From Klebsiella phage vB_KaeM_KaOmega, in the sequence record MN013077.1: a stretch of 64,000 bases of DNA; one strand, given 5' to 3'. Made by a program: the position numbers and the translations under genes. This document shows positions 2,739 to 61,072 of the stretch, one piece after another. The notes under the pieces were generated by a model. That model saw only the letters and a program-made list of their open reading frames with translations, made no database searches and was not told where the DNA came from. How positions within the stretch are numbered: position 1 is the stretch's first letter; the number at the start of each line of letters is the position of its first letter.

Positions 2739-3131
2739 ATGACTACTTTCAACGTTTTACACTTAAACGCTTTTATCGCGGGTTACATTGAGGCAATGTT
2801 TTTTGCAGAGTCCGCCACCGATAGCGACGGCGAAGAGATCGAAAGTTTAGCCGGGTATGAGTTAAGCGCTGAAGCCCTGGACGCTGCCCGCATGGATTGT
2901 GCCCGCTTTATGGACGTTGCGCCTCTGTTACTCAAAGGGGCAATGCTGGCAGGGGTTGACTATGACCACACCCAGGCGGGCCGGGATCTATGGTTTAGCC
3001 GTCAAGGGCACGGCGTAGGATTCTGGGATCGCGGACTTGGGGCGATCGGTGATAAACTCCACGACGTGGCGAAGACTTTCGGATCAAAAAATCTGTTTAT
3101 CAATGATGCCGGATTTATTGAGGTAGAATAA
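2739..3131 (+). CDS. hypothetical early protein (130 aa)
   Basis: ORF track. Confidence 0.6.
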   Translation: MTTFNVLHLNAFIAGYIEAMFFAESATDSDGEEIESLAGYELSAEALDAARMDCARFMDVAPLLLKGAMLAGVDYDHTQAGRDLWFSRQGHGVGFWDRGLGAIGDKLHDVAKTFGSKNLFINDAGFIEVE

Positions 3132-3592
3132 TGAACCTTACAGATCTGAAGTATTACGACGAATTGACCCCAGCGGCGCAAGCTGAAGCCCGGCGCAACG
3201 TTGCCGCTAGTGTGCAGACTCACCACGGGCGGGAAATCGGAAAGGCGTTTTTTAAATTCCAGCGGGACCCAAACAAGGCGATCAATGACCCGCTGCACAT
3301 CCGCCGGATCATCAATGGCGGCGAAGCGTGGCGCAAGATCCGCCAGGAGGGCGACGCCTATCTAATCCGCTTTATCCGGTCCAATAAAGTGATCTTTACT
3401 GATTGCGGGGCGTATGTAGCGTATGTGGACGCCTTCACAATGTTTATTGATGGGTTGGAATACATACCCACAGCCGAACAGCAAAAGACTCTTAGAACGC
3501 CTTACATCGACGTTAACGGGCGGGGGCCTGCGTTTCATGATTGGCTATACCGTATGCACCACAAAATAAAGTTTTTCATGATCCGGGGTTGA
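3131..3592 (+). CDS. hypothetical early protein (153 aa)
   Basis: ORF track; ATGA overlap with the upstream gene. Confidence 0.6.
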   Translation: MNLTDLKYYDELTPAAQAEARRNVAASVQTHHGREIGKAFFKFQRDPNKAINDPLHIRRIINGGEAWRKIRQEGDAYLIRFIRSNKVIFTDCGAYVAYVDAFTMFIDGLEYIPTAEQQKTLRTPYIDVNGRGPAFHDWLYRMHHKIKFFMIRG

Positions 3593-3617
3593 CACCCGGC
3601 GGAATAGGGCCGATAAT
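3589..3617 (+). promoter_or_regulatory. early promoter TTGACA-N17-GATAAT, followed in the 5'UTR by the conserved hairpin TAGGGCGGGGAATGGTCCCCGG
   Basis: seen in sequence. Confidence 0.55.
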
Positions 3618-45389: not shown

Positions 45390-45534
45390 CCTAATCCTCC
45401 TCTACAACCTCATAAACTTTGGTGATTGATCCATACCAATCTTCAAGTTTATCCTCCAGTAAGTGTTCTAGCCGCTCGGCAGTGACTCCCATCTCTTCCA
45501 ATTCACCAGGCTCACAGATTATCTTTAAAATCAT
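45390..45534 (-). CDS. possible small acidic protein (47 aa)
   Basis: manual ORF MILKIICEPGELEEMGVTAERLEHLLEDKLEDWYGSITKVYEVVEED; overlaps the NADAR gene end by 22 nt. Confidence 0.3.
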
Positions 45535-46069
45535 GCCTTACCCTCTGGTATCCGCCACACTTATCGATCAGCGCATCAGTCGCCCGGTCCCAAGCCTTAC
45601 CTAGCAGGTTAAGTCCCAGCCAATTCTGCTCTTCATGAATCATCGGGTGAAACTCATCCATGCCGATACCCCAGATCTTGTCTCGTGGTGAAGCCTCTAC
45701 GAAACTTCGGCCCCTCAGTCTGTGAATGATAGCAGCGCCACGCAGATCCAGATCGAACACGAGTCGGCAGTAGCAGACATTCTCGACGATCTGCTCTCGG
45801 GACTTCTCCCACAGTTCGTTGTTGAACCCCTTTACTTTACGACCAAGCATCTTGGCCTCTTGGGGATGGTAAGCCTCAACAATCTGCCGGGCGATGTTGA
45901 GGTCGGCGAACAGCATGGCCTTTTCGTACATCATCATGTGTTCCCCGGTGTAGAATTTTACACCCTCCTGCTCATGGCGCGGCAGAAAGAACGCCTTGTC
46001 ACTTCGATAATGATTACTGAACATGTCCTTCCAAGAATAGAAGAACACGTGCTTGTCTGTCACTTTCAT
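45512..46069 (-). CDS. NADAR (YbiA-like N-glycosidase) domain protein (185 aa)
   Basis: KIWGIGMD and ..LGLNLLGKAW motifs of the DUF1768/NADAR family; ATG at 46069 is ATGA-coupled. Confidence 0.75.
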   Translation of the reverse strand: MKVTDKHVFFYSWKDMFSNHYRSDKAFFLPRHEQEGVKFYTGEHMMMYEKAMLFADLNIARQIVEAYHPQEAKMLGRKVKGFNNELWEKSREQIVENVCYCRLVFDLDLRGAAIIHRLRGRSFVEASPRDKIWGIGMDEFHPMIHEEQNWLGLNLLGKAWDRATDALIDKCGGYQRVRHDFKDNL

Positions 46070-46266
46070 GATAGCACACTCCATACCAGCGCCCCAAACG
46101 CCATTAAAAGGAGAACGGCTATCAAAGTTAATGCCAAAGTAAAACCGACGACATCTCGGGCATACAGACCGAAGTCTTGGAATACCGGAATCATCACTGC
46201 CGGGATGATGCAGGCCACAACAATGATGAACAGTACGTAAATCCCGCCAAAAATCAAAGTCTTCAT
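46066..46266 (-). CDS. small membrane protein (66 aa, 2 TM)
   Basis: ORF track 46066..46311; ATG at 46266. Confidence 0.5.
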   Translation of the reverse strand: MKTLIFGGIYVLFIIVVACIIPAVMIPVFQDFGLYARDVVGFTLALTLIAVLLLMAFGALVWSVLS

Positions 46267-46601
46267 AGTCCATCTCCAAAAATAAGTGACGCCGGGCAAC
46301 TGATCCGGCAATCATCTGTTAAAGGGAACTCCTGGAGGTACTGTGCCAACAGGATGCTTGAGTTGTTGCTATACTGCCCGGCGTTGATGTGAATGTAAGA
46401 GATCTCCCACGGAAACAGGGGACTGTTCACGATATGAGTCTCTACGATATCCATCAATTGACCGAACGTGATCAGCGGCTCACCTTTTGACGGGAGGTAA
46501 AGACCAAACCGCAGGCCAGCCGGGCCAGTCGGTTCCATCTTACGGAACCCTACCGCTTTTGACATATCTACAGCAAAAACTTCAATTGTTACAGTTTCCA
46601 T
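46263..46601 (-). CDS. hypothetical protein (112 aa)
   Basis: ORF track. Confidence 0.55.
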   Translation of the reverse strand: METVTIEVFAVDMSKAVGFRKMEPTGPAGLRFGLYLPSKGEPLITFGQLMDIVETHIVNSPLFPWEISYIHINAGQYSNNSSILLAQYLQEFPLTDDCRISCPASLIFGDGL

Positions 46602-54026: not shown

Positions 54027-54398
54027 GTGAAGGATTTTGTTGTTCCAGAGGGTTCTTTTGTAAGCCTCCCTACTCTGTGGGGCTTCGACTTGCCTGCCGA
54101 AGACTTCAAGAGGATGTTCTTGTTACATTTCCGATTCAAGTATTTCGCAGAGCAAGCGTTTCAGAGTGGTGAAGATGTAAGGCGCTGTTACTACGAGTCG
54201 CAGGAAACTCTGTGCGGCTTGTTTGGTATGTCTGAAACTTCAAGGTCAAAAGTCAGCAAGTTCCTCAAGCGGATGGAGGAGGCGGGGTATGTCTCAATCA
54301 TTCGTGAGAAAGTAATGCTTTATGGTTCATTCAAACCAAGGCATTACATTGTGGTTAACGACCCTGCACTTTTGAAAAGATATAACCTGGCCCCTTGA
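54027..54398 (+). CDS. winged-helix (HTH) DNA-binding protein (123 aa), GTG start
   Basis: ORF track; AAGGAGG RBS-like sequence; HTH-like LCGLFGMSETSRSKVSKFLKRMEEAGYV. Confidence 0.6.
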   Translation: MKDFVVPEGSFVSLPTLWGFDLPAEDFKRMFLLHFRFKYFAEQAFQSGEDVRRCYYESQETLCGLFGMSETSRSKVSKFLKRMEEAGYVSIIREKVMLYGSFKPRHYIVVNDPALLKRYNLAP

Positions 54399-54416
54399 CG
54401 GGGCCTTTTTCTTTTT
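54388..54416 (+). terminator. rho-independent terminator GGCCCCTTGACGGGGCC + TTTTTCTTTTT
   Basis: seen in sequence. Confidence 0.75.
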
Positions 54417-54452
54417 GTAATATCGCTGTACTTTAACTGAGAGGAGAGAAAT

Positions 54453-55343
54453 ATGATTCGTGCGTATCTTGGCGGAAGCCAACTGGATGTCGAATTTGGA
54501 ACATTCGCCGGGGGTGAGCGTAGCGTCCGCATCAACGGTTATATGCTGACAAGCCCATTCAACCCTGACCTGAAAGAGAACATCCCTGAAGGTAAAGACC
54601 TGGTGGTTTATGCTCACGTTGATAGTTCAGATGCCATCATGGATCTGCTTCTGTTTACAGATGCATTCAACCGCTTGGGCCGTGGTACGGGCCACTTGGT
54701 TAAAAAGGTGTGCTGCCTTCCGTACATTCCGTATGCCCGACAAGACCGGGTAATGGTCCCTGGCGAACCGCTGTCTGCCGAGGTGTTTGGCAGAATCATC
54801 GGCCTATGCGCCTTTGACCGTATCATTGTGGATGACCCACACTCGGATGTGTCTCCTTCACACATCAAAAACGTCTCCATCTTCGAACAATATGAACTGG
54901 CGTTGGATATTCTCGGCCCAGGGTTCTTTGATGATGCCGTTATCGTAGCGCCGGATGCCGGGGCGATTAAGAAGGTTACCAAACTGGCGAAGAAGGTTAA
55001 TCACCGACACATCGGTGTGGGAACTAAGCATCGTGATCTTGTGACCAACAATATCACTGATACAACTTACGCAGGGCCGGATGTTAATGGTAAGCGTGTC
55101 ATCATGGTGGATGACATCTGCGATGGTGGTCGAACCTTTATCGAACTCGGGAAGGTGCTCCGTGCCAATGGTGCCAAAGAGGTGATTCTTTACACCACCC
55201 ACGGCATTTACTCCTACGGCGCGGATGTGTTCCGTGATGTTATCGACGAAGTTTATTCCGCTTACCCGTGGATGAAGAACCTCGAAGGACGAAACGAAAA
55301 TAATATTTTCAAATCGGTTGACAAGATGGTCGAGTTCAAGTAA
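54453..55343 (+). CDS. ribose-phosphate pyrophosphokinase (Prs) homolog; candidate ADP-ribose pyrophosphokinase (Adps-like)
   Basis: IPYARQDR, PRPP-binding loop RVIMVDDICDGGRT and THGIYS motifs; RBS-like sequence GAGAGGAGAGAAATATG. Confidence 0.8.
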   Translation: MIRAYLGGSQLDVEFGTFAGGERSVRINGYMLTSPFNPDLKENIPEGKDLVVYAHVDSSDAIMDLLLFTDAFNRLGRGTGHLVKKVCCLPYIPYARQDRVMVPGEPLSAEVFGRIIGLCAFDRIIVDDPHSDVSPSHIKNVSIFEQYELALDILGPGFFDDAVIVAPDAGAIKKVTKLAKKVNHRHIGVGTKHRDLVTNNITDTTYAGPDVNGKRVIMVDDICDGGRTFIELGKVLRANGAKEVILYTTHGIYSYGADVFRDVIDEVYSAYPWMKNLEGRNENNIFKSVDKMVEFK

Positions 55344-55394
55344 TATTCACAACGTTCCGGGGCAATGTGCCCCGATTTCACTGAGGAGATTTAT

Positions 55395-57185
55395 ATGTTA
55401 CATAATGACCTGCCTATTCTGTTTGCTGACTGGTACAAGCCGAGCCACATTTCCATGTACAGCAAAAAGTCTGAGATCGTACAGGACAACCTGACACCAC
55501 GCTCAAGCAAACACTTCCAGCACTTCTCTGACAGTGACCAGCGTGTTATGTCTGCGGGCCTGCAAGGCTTTATTAAGTGGTTCCTGATCGAACACTTCAA
55601 CCGCGAGTTCTTCGGTCGTCCGAAAGAAGAAGTTATCGGCGAGTTCAAAGAAATCTGTGACTTGGCTATCGGCCCGGACATGGTTGAAACGTGGGGCTTT
55701 GAAAAGCTGCACGATCTTGGATATCTGCCTGTTGAAATCCGCGCCCTGCCGGAAGGTACACTTTCTCCGGTACAAGTGCCGCTGTTCACCATTCAGAACA
55801 CGCACCCGGACTTCTACTGGCTTCCTAACTATCTGGAGTCAGTGATCTCCTCCGAAAACTGGAAAACCGTAACCACGGCAACCATTTTCTGGCAGTATCG
55901 TAAGCTGGCTGAACTGTGGGCGCAGAAAACCTGTGACAGCAACCTGCACGTTCCATACCAGATTCACTGTTTCGCTTATCGTGGTCAGGCTGGTACTCAC
56001 GATGCGGCACAGTCTGAACTGGGCCAACTGATGAACTCTCAGGGCACCGATACCATTCCGGCGATCCTGTATGCAAACCGTTATTACGGTATGAAGGGTA
56101 AGTTCGTTTCCGGCTCCATCCCGGCATCCGAGCACAGTGTTGCAACAACGAACATCGGCTTCATCATCGGACGCCTTCGTTCTGAGCATCCTGAAATGTC
56201 GCTGGATGACCTGCGTTTCCACGCAGAGGTCGAGTTCCTGCGCCGTTACATCACTGAAATCTTCCCGAAAGGTTTCGTGTCATACGTCGGCGACAGCTAC
56301 GACTGGTTCCGTCTGATTACAGAGGGTGTTCGCATCCTGAAAGACGAAATCATGGCCCGTGACGGTCGTGTAGTATTCCGTCCGGACTCCGGCGTACCGG
56401 AAGACATCATCTGCGGAACACTCGACTGGCGCAAGATCGAAGATTTGGATGAAGCAGGGACTCTGGAACGTGCTGCTGAGTGGGCACTGGAAAGCGCCGA
56501 AGAGGAAGTTCGCCAGGACACCCCGCACGGTGAATGTGGCGATGAGACCGTTGAACGTTACTTCCTGTTCGATGGTGACCTGTACCTTATGAAGGGTGAG
56601 CTTGACTGGAACCGTTATGACAAGCAGTATTACTACATCGACGGCAGTCGTGTTCTGTCTTACGAAAAAGCGGAACTGACCAACGAGCAGAAAGGCTCTG
56701 TTGAACTGCTGTACGATGTGTTCGGTGGCGACCTGAACTCCAAAGGCTATCGCACCCTGGATACTCACGTCGGCCTGATTTACGGTGACTCCATCACCGT
56801 GGCCCGTGCGAAAGAGATCTTCGAGCGCCTTGAAGCAAAAGGCTTTGCATCGAACAACGTTGTGTTCGGTGTTGGTTCCTTCACTACCCAGTTCAACACC
56901 CGCGATTCTCTGGGTCAGGCCGTGAAGGCAACTGGTGCGGTTATTGACGGTCAGCAAATCATGGTCGTCAAAGAGCCTAAGACCGACCTCGGCAAGAAGT
57001 CTGCACAGGGCTTCCTGAAGGTTGTTCGTGGCGAGGATGGCGAACTGAAGCTGGTTGATAACCTGCAACTTGAACAGGTTAACGACGCCGACAACGAACT
57101 GCGTGTGGTGTTCCGCGACGGTAAACTGCTGGTAGACGAAACACTGACTGAGATCCGTGAACGTGTTACCGCAAATCTGAAATAA
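55395..57185 (+). CDS. nadV: nicotinamide phosphoribosyltransferase (NAMPT/NadV) homolog; candidate Namat-like enzyme (596 aa)
   Basis: ORF track 55365..57185; ATG at 55395 with GAGGAG RBS-like sequence; NAMPT-family sequence throughout and about 100 aa longer than typical NadV. Confidence 0.8.
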   Translation: MLHNDLPILFADWYKPSHISMYSKKSEIVQDNLTPRSSKHFQHFSDSDQRVMSAGLQGFIKWFLIEHFNREFFGRPKEEVIGEFKEICDLAIGPDMVETWGFEKLHDLGYLPVEIRALPEGTLSPVQVPLFTIQNTHPDFYWLPNYLESVISSENWKTVTTATIFWQYRKLAELWAQKTCDSNLHVPYQIHCFAYRGQAGTHDAAQSELGQLMNSQGTDTIPAILYANRYYGMKGKFVSGSIPASEHSVATTNIGFIIGRLRSEHPEMSLDDLRFHAEVEFLRRYITEIFPKGFVSYVGDSYDWFRLITEGVRILKDEIMARDGRVVFRPDSGVPEDIICGTLDWRKIEDLDEAGTLERAAEWALESAEEEVRQDTPHGECGDETVERYFLFDGDLYLMKGELDWNRYDKQYYYIDGSRVLSYEKAELTNEQKGSVELLYDVFGGDLNSKGYRTLDTHVGLIYGDSITVARAKEIFERLEAKGFASNNVVFGVGSFTTQFNTRDSLGQAVKATGAVIDGQQIMVVKEPKTDLGKKSAQGFLKVVRGEDGELKLVDNLQLEQVNDADNELRVVFRDGKLLVDETLTEIRERVTANLK

Positions 57186-57189
57186 TATT

Positions 57190-57216
57190 AGCCGCCCTTC
57201 GGGGCGGTTTTCTTCT
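57190..57216 (+). terminator. terminator CCGCCCTTCGGGGCGG + TTTTCTTCTCTC
   Basis: seen in sequence. Confidence 0.7.
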
Positions 57217-57230
57217 CTCAGGAGGATAGA

Positions 57231-58515: not shown

Positions 58516-58772
58516 GGCTACAGGTAATCTGAATATGTCCCGAACGAGATGACAATCAAGTAGGTGGATGGATAAGTCAACCCGGTCTGTTAAACGACCA
58601 AAGTGCCATTGCGGTTCGGGTTGAGTTCAGCCGGATAAACAGCGGCTCCATCGACGACCTCTGGAATAGCGACGGTTGCTTCAGGCCCTCGGGCCACCCG
58701 TAACGTGAAACATGTTTTTGCTGGACGAGAAGGGGAAGTCAACCCCACGGGCATACGTCCTCTGCCCATCTT

Positions 58773-58848
58773 GCTGGATTAGCTCAGAAGGTAGAGCGCC
58801 TCACTTGTAATGAGGATGTCGCGGGTTCGAATCCTGCATCCAGCACCA
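58773..58848 (+). tRNA. tRNA-Thr (anticodon TGT)
   Basis: hand-folded cloverleaf; TAGCTCAGAAGGTAGAGC D-arm; GGTTCGAATCC T-loop; encoded CCA. Confidence 0.8.
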
Positions 58849-58854
58849 GATCAT

Positions 58855-58931
58855 GCAACGTTGCCGGAGTCTGGTAACGGCTCTCGCTGCAAACGAGATG
58901 AGCACTGGTTCGAATCCAGTACGTTGCTCCA
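58855..58931 (+). tRNA. tRNA-Cys (anticodon GCA)
   Basis: acceptor GCAACGT/ACGTTGC; anticodon loop CTGCAAA; T-loop GGTTCGAATCC; CCA. Confidence 0.7.
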
Positions 58932-58932
58932 A

Positions 58933-59009
58933 GCGTCTTTGGTCCAATTGGTAGAGGCACTACACTCAAAATGTAGGGGTTCCCAGTTCGAATCTGGGAA
59001 GGCGCACCA
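58933..59009 (+). tRNA. tRNA with anticodon loop CTCAAAA (reads as CAA) but type-I, Trp-like body; isotype uncertain
   Basis: acceptor GCGTCTT/AAGGCGC; D-arm CCAATTGGTAGAGG; perfect T-arm; CCA. Confidence 0.55.
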
Positions 59010-59015
59010 CACATT

Positions 59016-59138
59016 GGCGACTGAGGTTGAGGAGAAATGGGAATCGCTCAGGCATGAGTAGACCATCTATCCAATAGGGCACTTCGCTCCCGGGTTGATC
59101 GCCGGGCTGTTCGGGTTCGAATCCTGGGGTCGCTGCCA
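59016..59138 (+). tRNA. atypically long tRNA-like element (123 nt): tRNA 3' half (GGTTCGAATCC, acceptor GGTCGCT-G-CCA) pairing with 5' GGCGACT across an extra insertion of about 45 nt
   Basis: hand-folded; the length does not fit a canonical tRNA. Confidence 0.35.
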
Positions 59139-59154
59139 ATTTTCATGTAACCTA

Positions 59155-59183
59155 TTGACATAGTGTAATTATGCTGCTAAGAT
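59155..59183 (+). promoter_or_regulatory. promoter TTGACA-N17-TAAGAT inside the tRNA region
   Basis: seen in sequence. Confidence 0.5.
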
Positions 59184-59209
59184 GAATACACTAACTCAAT
59201 GGGGGCATT

Positions 59210-59584
59210 ATGAGCAAGGCTGCGATTGTAACTCGTAAGCGTGGTCGCCCAAGCAAAGAAGAGAGCACAGCAATTGCCCTTGAAAAGGCAATGCTTGATC
59301 TCCGAGGCGAATTGGCCCGTCTGACGCCGAAGGCCATTACTACTCTCGAAAACCTGCTCACAACGGGTACAGAGAAGGTGAAGGAAACCACGGCGAAGTA
59401 TATCCTTGAGCAGGCTAAAGAGGTTAACAACCTCTACACTGAAGAGGATAACGAAGACGACGCAGCAGGCGGCACAACATCTGCCTCTTCTGAAACTCAC
59501 GCTGGTTCTTCTGACGAGATGAAAAATGCCATCCCGTTGACTACCCAGATTCGTGAGTATAAAGTAGTAGGTGAAGATGATTAA
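59210..59584 (+). CDS. hypothetical DNA-binding-like protein (124 aa; N-terminal RKRGRPSK AT-hook-like, acidic C-terminus)
   Basis: ORF track; GGGGG RBS-like sequence. Confidence 0.6.
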   Translation: MSKAAIVTRKRGRPSKEESTAIALEKAMLDLRGELARLTPKAITTLENLLTTGTEKVKETTAKYILEQAKEVNNLYTEEDNEDDAAGGTTSASSETHAGSSDEMKNAIPLTTQIREYKVVGEDD

Positions 59585-59587
59585 TTG

Positions 59588-59614
59588 GAAGGCTCCCGAA
59601 GGAGCCTTTATTAG
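59588..59614 (+). terminator. hairpin AGGCTCCCGAAGGAGCCT + TTATT (weak terminator)
   Basis: seen in sequence. Confidence 0.5.
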
Positions 59615-59749
59615 AAGTTCTCTTTTGACGGGCACTTGTTAACGACCCGCAGCATGGCGTCGGTGTACAACGGCGTTTGATGGCGAGGAAGGTCTATAGG
59701 GATCAGCGCAGATCCTTGGATATCAGGTGAGCCGTACAAAAGAGAATTT

Positions 59750-59837
59750 GGGGAGTTATTTCCGTAGAGGTAGCGGTGCAGACTGTAAATCTGTTGTCAT
59801 TGCGACTCGGGTGGTTCGACTCCATCACTCCCCACCA
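59750..59837 (+). tRNA. tRNA-Tyr (anticodon GTA), type II
   Basis: anticodon loop CTGTAAA; long variable arm; T-loop GGTTCGACTCC; CCA. Confidence 0.8.
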
Positions 59838-59843
59838 AATTTT

Positions 59844-59938
59844 AGTAGGATGGCTGAGTGGCTTAAAGCAGCATCTTGGAAAGGTGTCGGTCGCAGTGAC
59901 CCTGCGGCCCGGGAGTTCAAATCTCCCTCCTACTGCCA
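59844..59938 (+). tRNA. tRNA-Ser (anticodon GGA), type II
   Basis: anticodon loop TTGGAAA; long variable arm; T-loop GAGTTCAAATCTCCC; CCA. Confidence 0.65.
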
Positions 59939-59942
59939 GATC

Positions 59943-60020
59943 GGATCGTTAGCTCAATTGGTTAGCAGCAAGGCACTTTTAATGCCGAGGTTCGGGGTTC
60001 GAGTCCCTGACGGTCCACCA
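59943..60020 (+). tRNA. tRNA-Lys (anticodon TTT)
   Basis: TAGCTCAATTGGTTAG D-arm; loop CTTTTAA; T-loop GGTTCGAGTCC; CCA. Confidence 0.7.
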
Positions 60021-60180
60021 GAAAGAAGAGGGTCCAAGCTGGTACTGAGTGCGAAAGCATACTCTAAGCCCAGATGGAGGCCACCCTGAAGTCGTCCAAC
60101 TGAAGGTCCCTGGTTGAGTAATACTTCCCCGCCTGTCGGGTACAGTTCTCAGTCACACCTGACGGGGCGCACCCAATTAT

Positions 60181-60256
60181 TGGTCTTTCGTATAATCGGT
60201 TATTACGGCGGACTGTTAATCCGTTTATCCGGGTTCGAGTCCCGGAGGACCAGCCA
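60181..60256 (+). tRNA. tRNA-Asn (anticodon GTT)
   Basis: anticodon arm GGCGGACTGTTAATCCG identical to E. coli tRNA-Asn; U1 start; CCA. Confidence 0.85.
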
Positions 60257-60306
60257 AACACTAAGTGTACTTAATCAATAGTCATTTCGATGGCTATTCG
60301 TTAAAA

Positions 60307-60384
60307 GCACCTATCGTCTAATTGGAATAGGACACCGACCTTTCACGTCGGCAAATACGGGTTCGAGTCCCGTTGGGTGTACCA
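60307..60384 (+). tRNA. tRNA-Glu (anticodon TTC)
   Basis: anticodon arm CCGACCTTTCACGTCGG; T-loop GGTTCGAGTCC; CCA. Confidence 0.7.
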
Positions 60385-60390
60385 GTTTTT

Positions 60391-60471
60391 AGGTTGGTAG
60401 ATTAATGGAGTTGTGGAACTCCACCGGGTTCCAACCCCGGCTCCGGGGGTTCGACTCCTCACCTTCCTGCC
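60391..60471 (+). tRNA. atypical tRNA-like element: His-like anticodon arm with an 8-nt loop TTGTGGAA, an extra hairpin CCGGGTTCCAACCCCGG, poor acceptor pairing
   Basis: hand-folded; D-loop GGTTGGTAG and T-loop GGTTCGACTCC present; ends in CCA. Confidence 0.35.
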
Positions 60472-60587
60472 ATCTTTGAGGTGTTACAGTTAAATCCTGT
60501 GTCGGAAGTGCGAATCGCGCGATAGCTGCCAATTGACAACGGGTAAGGCTGTACAGGACTCGGACTCCCATCTCAAAACCAAATTCA

Positions 60588-60663
60588 GGTCCTATGGTAT
60601 CAGCGGTAAACATACTCGCCTGTCACGCGAGAGTCACGGGTTCGAATCCCGTTAGGACCGCCA
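60588..60663 (+). tRNA. tRNA-Asp (anticodon GTC)
   Basis: loop CTGTCAC with stem CTCGC/GCGAG; T-loop GGTTCGAATCC; CCA. Confidence 0.85.
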
Positions 60664-60667
60664 CTTT

Positions 60668-60743
60668 TGGGGATTAGCTCAGTTGGTAGAGCGCTCGACC
60701 GATAATCGAGAGGTCACTGGTTCAAGTCCAGTATCCCCAACCA
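60668..60743 (+). tRNA. tRNA-Ile (anticodon GAT; C at position 33)
   Basis: TAGCTCAGTTGGTAGAGC D-arm; loop CCGATAA; T-loop GGTTCAAGTCC; CCA. Confidence 0.75.
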
Positions 60744-60747
60744 CATA

Positions 60748-60824
60748 CGGTGTGTAGCTCAGTCTGGTAGAGCGATTGCTTTGGGAGCATTAGGTCCGAG
60801 GTTCGAGTCCTCGTACACCGACCA
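60748..60824 (+). tRNA. tRNA-Pro (anticodon TGG)
   Basis: loop TTTGGGA; T-loop GGTTCGAGTCC; 3' end CACCGACCA. Confidence 0.8.
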
Positions 60825-60830
60825 AATTAT

Positions 60831-60905
60831 TGCGAGGTAGTTCAGCGGTAGAACAGGGGTTTCATACGCCTCATGTCGGCAGTTCGATTCTGCCCTTCGC
60901 AACCA
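60831..60905 (+). tRNA. tRNA-Met (anticodon CAT; elongator- or Ile2-type)
   Basis: loop TTCATAC; 1-72 base-paired; T-loop GTTCGATTC; CCA. Confidence 0.7.
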
Positions 60906-60911
60906 AATTAT

Positions 60912-60989
60912 GCTCCAGTAGCCCAATTGGTAGAGGCACTTGATTTAGGATCATGTCAGTGATGAGTTCGAATCTCTCCTGGAGTACCA
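60912..60989 (+). tRNA. tRNA-like gene with weak stems; anticodon loop TTTAGGA (reads TAG) on a type-I body; isotype uncertain, possibly a pseudo-tRNA
   Basis: D-arm CCAATTGGTAGAGG as in the tRNA at 58933; T-stem only 3 bp. Confidence 0.4.
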
Positions 60990-60995
60990 TATAAA

Positions 60996-61072
60996 GCATC
61001 CATAGTGTCAGCGGCCTAACACTCCGTCCTTCCAAGTCGGAACCCTCGGTTCGAATCCGAGTGGATGCTCCA
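60996..61072 (+). tRNA. tRNA-Gly (anticodon TCC)
   Basis: loop CTTCCAA; T-loop GGTTCGAATCC; 3' GCTCCA. Confidence 0.8.

Follow-up and report, generated by a model that had tools for sequence, protein, structure and literature searches.

A predicted two-gene NARP1 module in Klebsiella phage vB_KaeM_KaOmega and a phage domain inserted in its NAMPT-like transferase

Introduction

Klebsiella phage vB_KaeM_KaOmega (sequence record MN013077.1) carries, within the 64,000-nucleotide (nt) stretch analysed here (the window), a gene for a Prs-like kinase directly followed by a gene for a NAMPT-like transferase, at positions 54453-57185. The question raised by this locus is whether the two proteins rebuild NAD+ through NAD+ reconstitution pathway 1 (NARP1), as the original prediction had proposed, or belong to another route of NAD+ metabolism. 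NARP1 uses an ADP-ribose pyrophosphokinase (Adps) and a nicotinamide ADP-ribose transferase (Namat). In vitro, SPbetaL1 Adps forms ADPR-PP from ADP-ribose (ADPR) and ATP, and SPbetaL1 Namat converts ADPR-PP and nicotinamide to NAD+ (Osterman et al. 2024). The same study showed in vivo that NARP1 of phage Bas63 counters SIR2-HerA without need of host pncC and nadR, as it works in a pncC nadR double mutant. In that survey 859 phages encode NARP1, and the published distribution of the pathway is ~4% of phages.

If the pair works in this way, a host defence of the SIR2, TIR or SEFIR type would cleave NAD+ to ADPR and nicotinamide, and Adps would move the beta,gamma-pyrophosphate of ATP onto ADPR, at the 1'' hydroxyl of its distal ribose, to give ADPR-PP. 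Namat would then swap the pyrophosphate of ADPR-PP for nicotinamide and regenerate NAD+ directly, and the restored NAD+ would let the phage continue replicating.

Here, we argue from sequence comparison that 54453-57185 is very probably an intact, plain two-gene NARP1 module in a myophage of the genus Certrevirus; that the pair has these enzyme activities and protects the phage from host defence is predicted by analogy. The pair is not the new candidate that the original prediction took it for: it is an already known NARP1 instance with an entry in the published catalogue, and only the insertion domain of its Namat is new.

Results

Both open reading frames (ORFs) are on the plus strand, at 54453..55343 (296 amino acids, aa) and 55365..57185 (606 aa counted from the first ATG). 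The first protein matches Pribosyltran, Pribosyl_synth and Pribosyltran_N of Pfam as well as PHROG 619 and TIGR01251, which places it in the Prs/phosphoribosyltransferase family, and the second matches Pfam NAPRTase, PHROG 448 and NCBIfam PRK09198, which places it in the NAMPT/NAPRTase family. The motifs by which the first gene had been recognized are present, with YARQDR at aa 94, RVIMVDDICDGGRT at aa 215 and THGIY at aa 249. The operational definition of NARP1 in Osterman et al. (2024) requires that a Namat homolog be found no more than 10 genes from a Prs/Adps homolog; in the window the two genes are adjacent on the same strand and 51 nt apart.

The closest relatives are Certrevirus myophages of ~145-150 kb, namely CR3, CR8, PBES 02, PcCB7V, phiTE, CB7 and the Enterobacter/Pantoea phages vB_ExiM_F*M1E. 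A 22-kb stretch neighbouring the module shares 96.7% DNA identity with Enterobacter phage vB_ExiM_F1M1E/F2M1E. The window Adps differs from the F1M1E protein OL744211_00277 by one substitution (T176I), and the window Namat differs from OL744211_00278 at 4 of its 596 residues. In Osterman et al. (2024), OL744211_00277 is scored as 'Namat within 10 genes: Yes' (Table S1) and OL744211_00278 as 'Adps-associated' (Table S2), and the two tables also list CR8, phiTE and CB7. Since the near-identical F1M1E pair is catalogued there, the pair of the window counts as already known. The window shares genus, gene order and terminators with F1M1E and other Certrevirus NARP1 modules, whereas the gene upstream is different in F1M1E, where similarity begins only at window position 54392.

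Pairwise identity does not tell Adps from Prs (27-32% identity to proven Adps and 30% to E. coli Prs) and was set aside for this question; we therefore used residue mapping, curated-model scores and C-terminal length. The alignment comprised the window protein, the Adps of Bas63, SPbetaL1, FADO and ICP1, and E. coli Prs. ICP1 Adps has been solved with ADPR/ATP and with ADPR-PP/AMP by crystallography and cryo-EM (Liu et al., PMC13586617). The catalytic lysines ICP1 K185 and SPbetaL1 K162 are located on a beta-hairpin and their mutation abolishes activity; K192 of the window protein shares their alignment column. The ADPR acceptor site is kept, with F18, R96, H130, D168, D220 and D221 of the window equivalent to F18, R87, H121, D161, D212 and D213 of ICP1. 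The ATP donor is bound by a remodelled PP loop (C215-S220 and F221 in ICP1), which is conserved among Adps. In the window protein this loop, C223-D-G-G-R-T-F229, is exactly that of Bas63, whereas E. coli Prs has I-D-T-G-G-T-L, and DPHSDV stands where Prs has DLHAEQ. After the histidine of the THG motif the window protein has 46 more residues, where E. coli Prs has 65 and the four proven Adps have 38-51. Judged on sequence length, this is consistent with loss of the C-terminal alpha11-alpha12, the filament/regulatory module of Prs. With these features the window Adps would be expected to form ADPR-PP.

The hidden Markov model comparison of Prs with Adps, suggested as a check of the original prediction, gave the window protein scores like those of proven Adps and unlike those of E. 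coli Prs. For TIGR01251/PRK01259, the bit scores are 139.7/108.6 for the window, 138.5/100.8 for Bas63, 106/74 for SPbetaL1, 98/80 for ICP1 and 422.7/531.9 for E. coli Prs. For phrog_619, the window protein scores 285.6 bits, proven Adps 246-333 and E. coli Prs 193.

These scores bear on the possibility that the pair serves canonical NAD+ salvage, in which a true PRPP (phosphoribosyl pyrophosphate) synthetase and a true Nampt would make nicotinamide mononucleotide (NMN), and host NadR or NadD/PncC would complete NAD+. Database names for the two proteins ('ribose-phosphate pyrophosphokinase' and 'nicotinamide phosphoribosyltransferase') agree with salvage, and the first protein passes the TIGR01251 cut-off of 113 bits. 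It fails, by contrast, all 11 other Prs models (8 equivalog and 3 subfamily models) by 3- to 7-fold, as proven Adps do; its best equivalog/PRK01259 scores of 64-108.6 bits stand against cut-offs of 296-536, which argues against membership in canonical Prs. The apparent absence of the alpha11-alpha12 module, again by sequence length, points in the same direction, as does the behaviour of tested relatives: SPbetaL1 Adps gave no product in a Prs-type assay, and Bas63 NARP1 needs neither pncC nor nadR.

The transferase adds a further discriminator. Structures of SPbetaL1 Namat in complex with either nicotinamide or NAD+ (PDB: 9W5X and 9W5W; Lan et al., PMC12774641) revealed a 'selectivity clamp' of two parts, a selectivity-clamp helix (SCH) with the motif GS-X-phi1-X-phi2-X-phi3-TRD and a variable selectivity-clamp loop (SCL) whose third residue is Arg, Lys or Tyr. 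The window sequence GSFTTQFNTRD fits the SCH motif, with positions 3 and 7 being aromatic, and the SCL, the beta1-beta2 loop, is long with Lys at position 3 followed by His/Phe. The published rule for the loop also places a stacking residue at position 3 or 4; position 4 of the window is a His that may stack. In NARP2-type NadV (KVP40-like phi-pp2, Lw1) the helix reads GGGLLQQLDRD or GGGLLQEVTRD and the loop is a short GGK. The catalytic core is intact: with SPbetaL1 D13, Y15, F189, R192, D215, the catalytic His, R306, D308, G360 and D361 as reference, the window has D12, Y14, F193, R196, D219, H247, R329, D331, G464 and D465.

The comparison of Namat with NAMPT, likewise suggested earlier, gave 9W5X/9W5W as the top PDB matches (414 bits), compared with 158-190 bits for bacterial and animal Nampt. 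The window protein is 42-47% identical to the Namats of Bas63, SPbetaL1, FADO and ICP1 and 30-31% identical to NARP2-type NadV; with phrog_15800 it scores 564 bits, Namats 312-480 and NadV 99-111. The profiles phrog_448 and PRK09198 were rejected as discriminators between Namat and Nampt, as both lump the two; the SCH motif, the PDB scores and phrog_15800 discriminate. By analogy with the proven enzymes, the window Namat would form NAD+ directly from ADPR-PP. That the transferase passes PRK09198 and that SPbetaL1 Namat yields NMN from PRPP in vitro if ADPR-PP is absent could be taken in favour of canonical salvage, but with the SCH of the Namat-specific adenine clamp present and the GGGLLQ motif of Nampt absent, we regard salvage as very improbable.

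Several points weigh against NARP1 as the function of the pair. The nearest experimentally tested enzymes are just 27-32% (Adps) and 42-47% (Namat) identical, and the first protein is no more distant from E. coli Prs (30% identity) than from proven Adps, so that what assigns it to Adps are its motifs, its profile scores, the truncated C-terminus and the linkage of the two genes. The adenine-contacting F92 and F223 of ICP1 are replaced by M101 and E231 in the window Adps, as in Bas63. In the Namat, SCH position 5 is Thr and not aromatic, SCL position 4 is His where Bas63 has Trp, and a ~90-aa insertion begins 11 residues past the catalytic R329/D331 strand. In vitro, Namat enzymes can also use PRPP and form NMN, so a degree of canonical activity would be compatible with the data. 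Finally, the search for partner genes covered the 64-kb window of a ~150-kb genome.

That search bears on whether the pair belongs to another or an extended route: NARP2 (Nampt with Nmnat), NARP1-AP (with the Macro phosphatase Adpp), RyDEP-extended NARP1 or NARP3 (PnuC with NadR). All of these are known from phages of Enterobacteria or relatives. We scanned with Pfam the 60 window ORFs of at least 123 aa, and included nine short ORFs flanking the pair and the downstream tRNA region. The 60 ORFs gave no match to CTP_transf_like (Nmnat), NUDIX, Macro, RyR, PnuC or NadR, and the domains found include ribonucleotide reductase, PhoH, NADAR, MazG, NT5C, HD, PolyA_pol (nucleotidyltransferase head), ligase and helicase. 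No Nmnat or Nudix was seen in the nine short ORFs or the downstream tRNA region either, in line with the original remark that the window holds no such partner. The two upstream and five downstream neighbour ORFs have no match to Macro (Adpp) or RyR, and no gene lies between adps and namat, where the 51-nt gap is too small for a third one. Moreover, Osterman et al. (2024) found zero phages with both NARP1 and NARP2, and the low identity of the transferase to NARP2-type NadV also speaks against NARP2. Because the partner domains are absent in the window, we favour plain two-gene NARP1 and consider these other routes highly improbable.

About 8 kb from the pair, a 267-aa ORF on the minus strand (45512-46315) has a NADAR domain (PF08719, E 7.5e-34) after an unassigned 90-aa N-terminus. 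NADAR enzymes remove ADP-ribose from guanine bases and so reverse the action of DarT. This ORF is a candidate for a second ADP-ribose-related counter-defence and, if the NADAR activity holds, its product would be the substrate of Adps.

The coordinates of the module are collected in Table 1. The namat reading frame is open from an ATG at 55365, which has no ribosome-binding site (RBS) and forms the loop of the intergenic hairpin. Since GAGGAG lies 6 nt upstream of the ATG at 55395 and relatives are annotated from MLHNDL, the equivalent start, the true start is almost certainly 55395, and the length of 596 aa given originally is preferred over 606 aa. The hairpin could be an element of RNA processing, stability or translational coupling; it sits in the intergenic region where phiTE has an HNH endonuclease gene.

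Table 1. Features of the adps-namat module and of the domain inserted in Namat
Feature	Position	Strand	Details
adps, predicted ADP-ribose pyrophosphokinase, Prs-like	54453..55343	+	296 aa; ORF, profile matches, residue mapping
namat, predicted nicotinamide ADP-ribose transferase, NAMPT-like	55395..57185	+	596 aa; ORF, profiles, residue mapping
RBS AGGAG	54442..54446	+	6 nt 5' of adps ATG
RBS GAGGAG	55383..55388	+	6 nt 5' of namat ATG at 55395
Hairpin CGGGGCA-ATG-TGCCCCG	55358..55374	+	adps-namat intergenic; perfect 7-bp stem, no T-run
Intrinsic terminator of upstream gene, module 5' boundary	54389..54415	+	terminator scan
Intrinsic terminator, module 3' boundary	57190..57219	+	terminator scan
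Sigma-70-like promoter candidate TTGACG-17-TAATAT	54395..54423	+	9/12, weak; overlaps 5' terminator
Sigma-70-like site TTGACA-17-TAATAT	55318..55346	+	10/12; end of adps
Selectivity-clamp loop (SCL), S37-S38-K39-H40-F41 onward	55503..55544	+	rule from PMC12774641
Small Namat insertion, aa 254-276	56154..56222	+	21 aa; vs SPbetaL1, FADO and ICP1 Namat
Large Namat insertion, aa 342-431	56418..56687	+	~90 aa (92-aa type); helix and beta-meander; motifs TPHGECG and DWNRYDKQYYYIDG
Selectivity-clamp helix (SCH), G494-S-F-T-T-Q-F-N-T-R-D504	56874..56906	+	motif from PMC12774641
Free-standing module proteins			P0121, P0127, P0130, P0142, P0145, P0147, P0150, P0151, P0156, P0167, P0169

Scanning for terminators found hairpins with T-runs on both sides of the module, where the original prediction had placed them. 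The 5' hairpin is GGCCCC-TTGAC-GGGGCC (54389-54405), with a 6-bp all-GC stem, a 5-nt loop and a TTTTTCTTTT tail, and the 3' hairpin is AGCCGCCC-TTCG-GGGCGGTT (57190-57209), with an 8-bp stem of 6 GC pairs and a T-rich tail. The two genes had been taken to form one transcription unit. This is plausible, and adps and namat are likely co-transcribed, but the sigma-70-like site at the end of adps precedes namat and is a possible internal promoter for it.

The gene upstream of the module (54027-54398, plus strand) encodes a 123-aa protein with weak winged-helix matches that all stay under the cut-off (TrmB, HTH_Crp_2, ArsR). PcCB7V, CR3, CR8 and phiTE also have this gene, and in the F*M1E phages it is replaced. 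Downstream, a tRNA cluster on the plus strand at ~58700-61000 is expected from homology with F1M1E, where the region has 17 annotated tRNAs (Thr, Cys, Leu, Tyr, Ser, Lys, Asn, Asp, Ile, Pro, Met, Gly, Gln, His, Phe and others).

In some relatives the module is interrupted. Two HNH genes invade NARP1 in phiTE, CB7, DU_PP_I and DU_PP_IV, one between adps and namat and the other inside namat. In phiTE (JQ015307 99210-104311), the HNH homing-endonuclease genes are at 1628-2185 and 3011-3595 of that stretch. In these phages namat is split after ...ATTNIGFII (window aa 258), which is the site of the small insertion, into ORFs of 278 aa and 332 aa. The window differs from the phiTE, CB7 and DU_PP modules in having no such genes.

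Given these invasions, and an insertion near the catalytic strand that may cripple the transferase, the module of the window could be a decaying or inactive remnant. Against this, both ORFs are intact with good RBSs, all catalytic residues and the SCH motif are kept, the flanks of the insertion are 75-98% conserved across relatives, and Bas63 Namat, with an insertion at the same site, is functional in vivo. A remnant is thus very unlikely, and the pair is better read as an intact NARP1 module.

That the NAMPT-like protein is ~100 aa longer than canonical NadV, as was noticed from the sequence at the outset, is accounted for by two insertions of 21 aa and ~90 aa relative to SPbetaL1 Namat (491 aa). 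The insertions were defined against the complete Namat sequences of SPbetaL1, FADO and ICP1 (~491-498 aa). The suspicion of an extra domain proved right. Bas63 Namat (593 aa) also has insertions at both sites, with an unrelated sequence at the large one; the extra domain is therefore not peculiar to the window locus, as Bas63 Namat shares its position. The insertion is not discussed in the discovery paper or in either structural paper, and we found no description of it in the literature searched.

Among 120 database relatives, the flanks of the large insertion are 73-98% identical to the window and the insertion is 52-92 aa long. In 14 proteins with the 92-aa type, the insertion is 58-97% and the flanks are 75-98% identical; in PcCB7V, F1M1E, CR3, CR8, phiTE and CB7, the insertion is 91-100% identical to that of the window. 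Two proteins (P0015 and P0016) have flanks that are 88-91% identical but insertions of 56-57 aa that are only 9-14% identical. Since conserved flanks surround dissimilar insertions, the comparison points to a hot spot of cassette swapping, with replacement rather than gradual drift. The short cassettes have a helix and then a hairpin like 'EVVxVxGKYYxI', and because helix and hairpin are kept they may be reduced versions of the long cassette.

AlphaFold2 predicts, for the 92-aa module, a helix (357-375) followed by an antiparallel beta-meander (385-425). The predicted local distance difference test (pLDDT) of the insertion is ~70-95 when the whole protein is modelled and 81-91 when a fragment is. 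The whole-protein model, with a mean pLDDT of 58, was set aside for active-site geometry and for placement of the insertion; its poor quality reflects an alignment that had only relatives of at least 68% identity.

The large insertion has no match in Pfam or PDB. In BFVD it has one strong match (E 1e-7, 35% identity, 156 aa), which agrees in length and motifs with AOQ26744.1, a free-standing ORF of Vibrio phage S4-7 (2204-2674 of the S4-7 stretch examined). AOQ26744.1 is mis-annotated as nicotinamide phosphoribosyl transferase and has ETPHGECG and DWNRYDKQYYYID in common with the window insertion; the S4-7 genome contains no Namat core. We considered whether the BFVD match is a mere fragment of a Namat and rejected this, as it is a stand-alone 156-aa ORF with unrelated neighbours in a phage that has no Namat core. 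Some short metagenomic matches (e.g. P0144 and P0166) are Namat fragments.

With tblastn, the beta part of the insertion (39-55% identity) was also recovered from the Namat genes of phages of Bacillus (Tsamsa-like), Pseudomonas putida and Acinetobacter; a further match is an ORF of a Bacteroides phage that has no annotation. Among 1.84 billion representatives, searched exhaustively with phmmer, 70 clusters match the insertion; they include long Namats, fragments of split Namats and ~880-aa fusions of Adps with Namat. Of the matching proteins, about two dozen are shorter than 185 aa, and at least 11 of them have unrelated N-termini and end just past the module (Table 1). The invariant positions of the module are G...W-N-R-x-D-K-x-x-Y, and its usual form is TPHGExG...WNR(Y/H)DKQYYYxDG. 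On longer contigs, the neighbours of stand-alone homologs are small hypothetical early/replication genes, with no NARP1 nearby; this context gave no functional clue, two contigs being too short and the others holding small hypothetical genes. From these sequences and their surroundings, we take the large insertion to be an autonomous phage domain that also occurs free-standing (88-156 aa) in early genes of phages without NARP1.

Two further kinds of protein were seen in these searches. P0159 and P0173 (170-171 aa) have NISWNR(Y/H)DKxYY(F/Y)(I/L)EMWE and an end that resembles the 'KGFAS..VVFG' strand of Namat, and they may be degenerate Namat remnants rather than true stand-alone proteins. Fusions of Adps and Namat in a single polypeptide (Prs N-domain and NAPRTase domain), some with the insertion module, are represented by P0157, P0171 and P0186 (876-890 aa) and P0122 (417 aa); the entry of Shigella phage Ag3 in Table S1 of Osterman et al. 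is cited among such fusions.

Discussion

The founding, in vivo validated NARP1 is that of Bas63 (Escherichia phage JohannRWettstein, genes 79-80). It has the same Adps-then-Namat order as the window and the same PP loop, CDGGRTF, and its Namat also has Lys at SCL position 3, the long form (~593 aa) and both insertion sites. Bas63 differs in belonging to Felixounavirus, in an identity of 31% (Adps) and 42% (Namat), and in the unrelated sequence of its large insertion. The Adps and Namat of SPbetaL1 and the Adps of ICP1 share with the window the catalytic Lys, the acceptor residues, the Namat core and the SCH motif, while Adps are 29-32% and Namats 46-47% identical and the SPbetaL1/ICP1 Namats, at 491-498 aa, lack both insertions; F92 and F223 of ICP1 Adps are not kept in the window. 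The Nampt of NARP2 (NadV of KVP40-like phages, Lw1/leE type), cellular Nampt and Prs have the same folds and the same nicotinamide- and ribose-binding core residues. NadV differs from the window Namat (30-31% identity): it carries GGGLLQ where the window has the aromatic SCH, its SCL is short, it is partnered with Nmnat and not with a Prs homolog, and it prefers PRPP.

What could the inserted module do in a Namat? Conceivable roles are those of a lid on the adenine side, a sensor for ligands, a docking site or a shield. That it is more than a passive loop and has its own function in the NAD+ arms race, by binding an ADPR-derived ligand or immune signal, by docking a partner or by shielding Namat from a host inhibitor, is an idea we hold only tentatively and think rather doubtful.

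The NARP1 pathway, its distribution, its structures and the gene pair of the sister phage have been published, and anti-defence annotation tools already detect NARP1. For the biology of this phage, the module predicts resistance to defences whose cleavage of NAD+ yields ADPR and nicotinamide (Thoeris I, DSR1/2, SIR2-HerA and SEFIR). In NARP1-AP, the Adpp phosphatase overcomes aRES; as no Adpp phosphatase is present here, the phage should remain sensitive to aRES. Such predicted resistance would be useful for host-range prediction in phage therapy or biocontrol with myophages of the Enterobacter/Cronobacter/Pectobacterium type. As a lead, the insertion module is modest yet concrete: a conserved domain within an anti-defence enzyme, which other phages also encode on its own. 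Should it bind a ligand or a host protein, NARP1 would gain an extra layer that is unseen in the structures of the short, insertion-less Namats.

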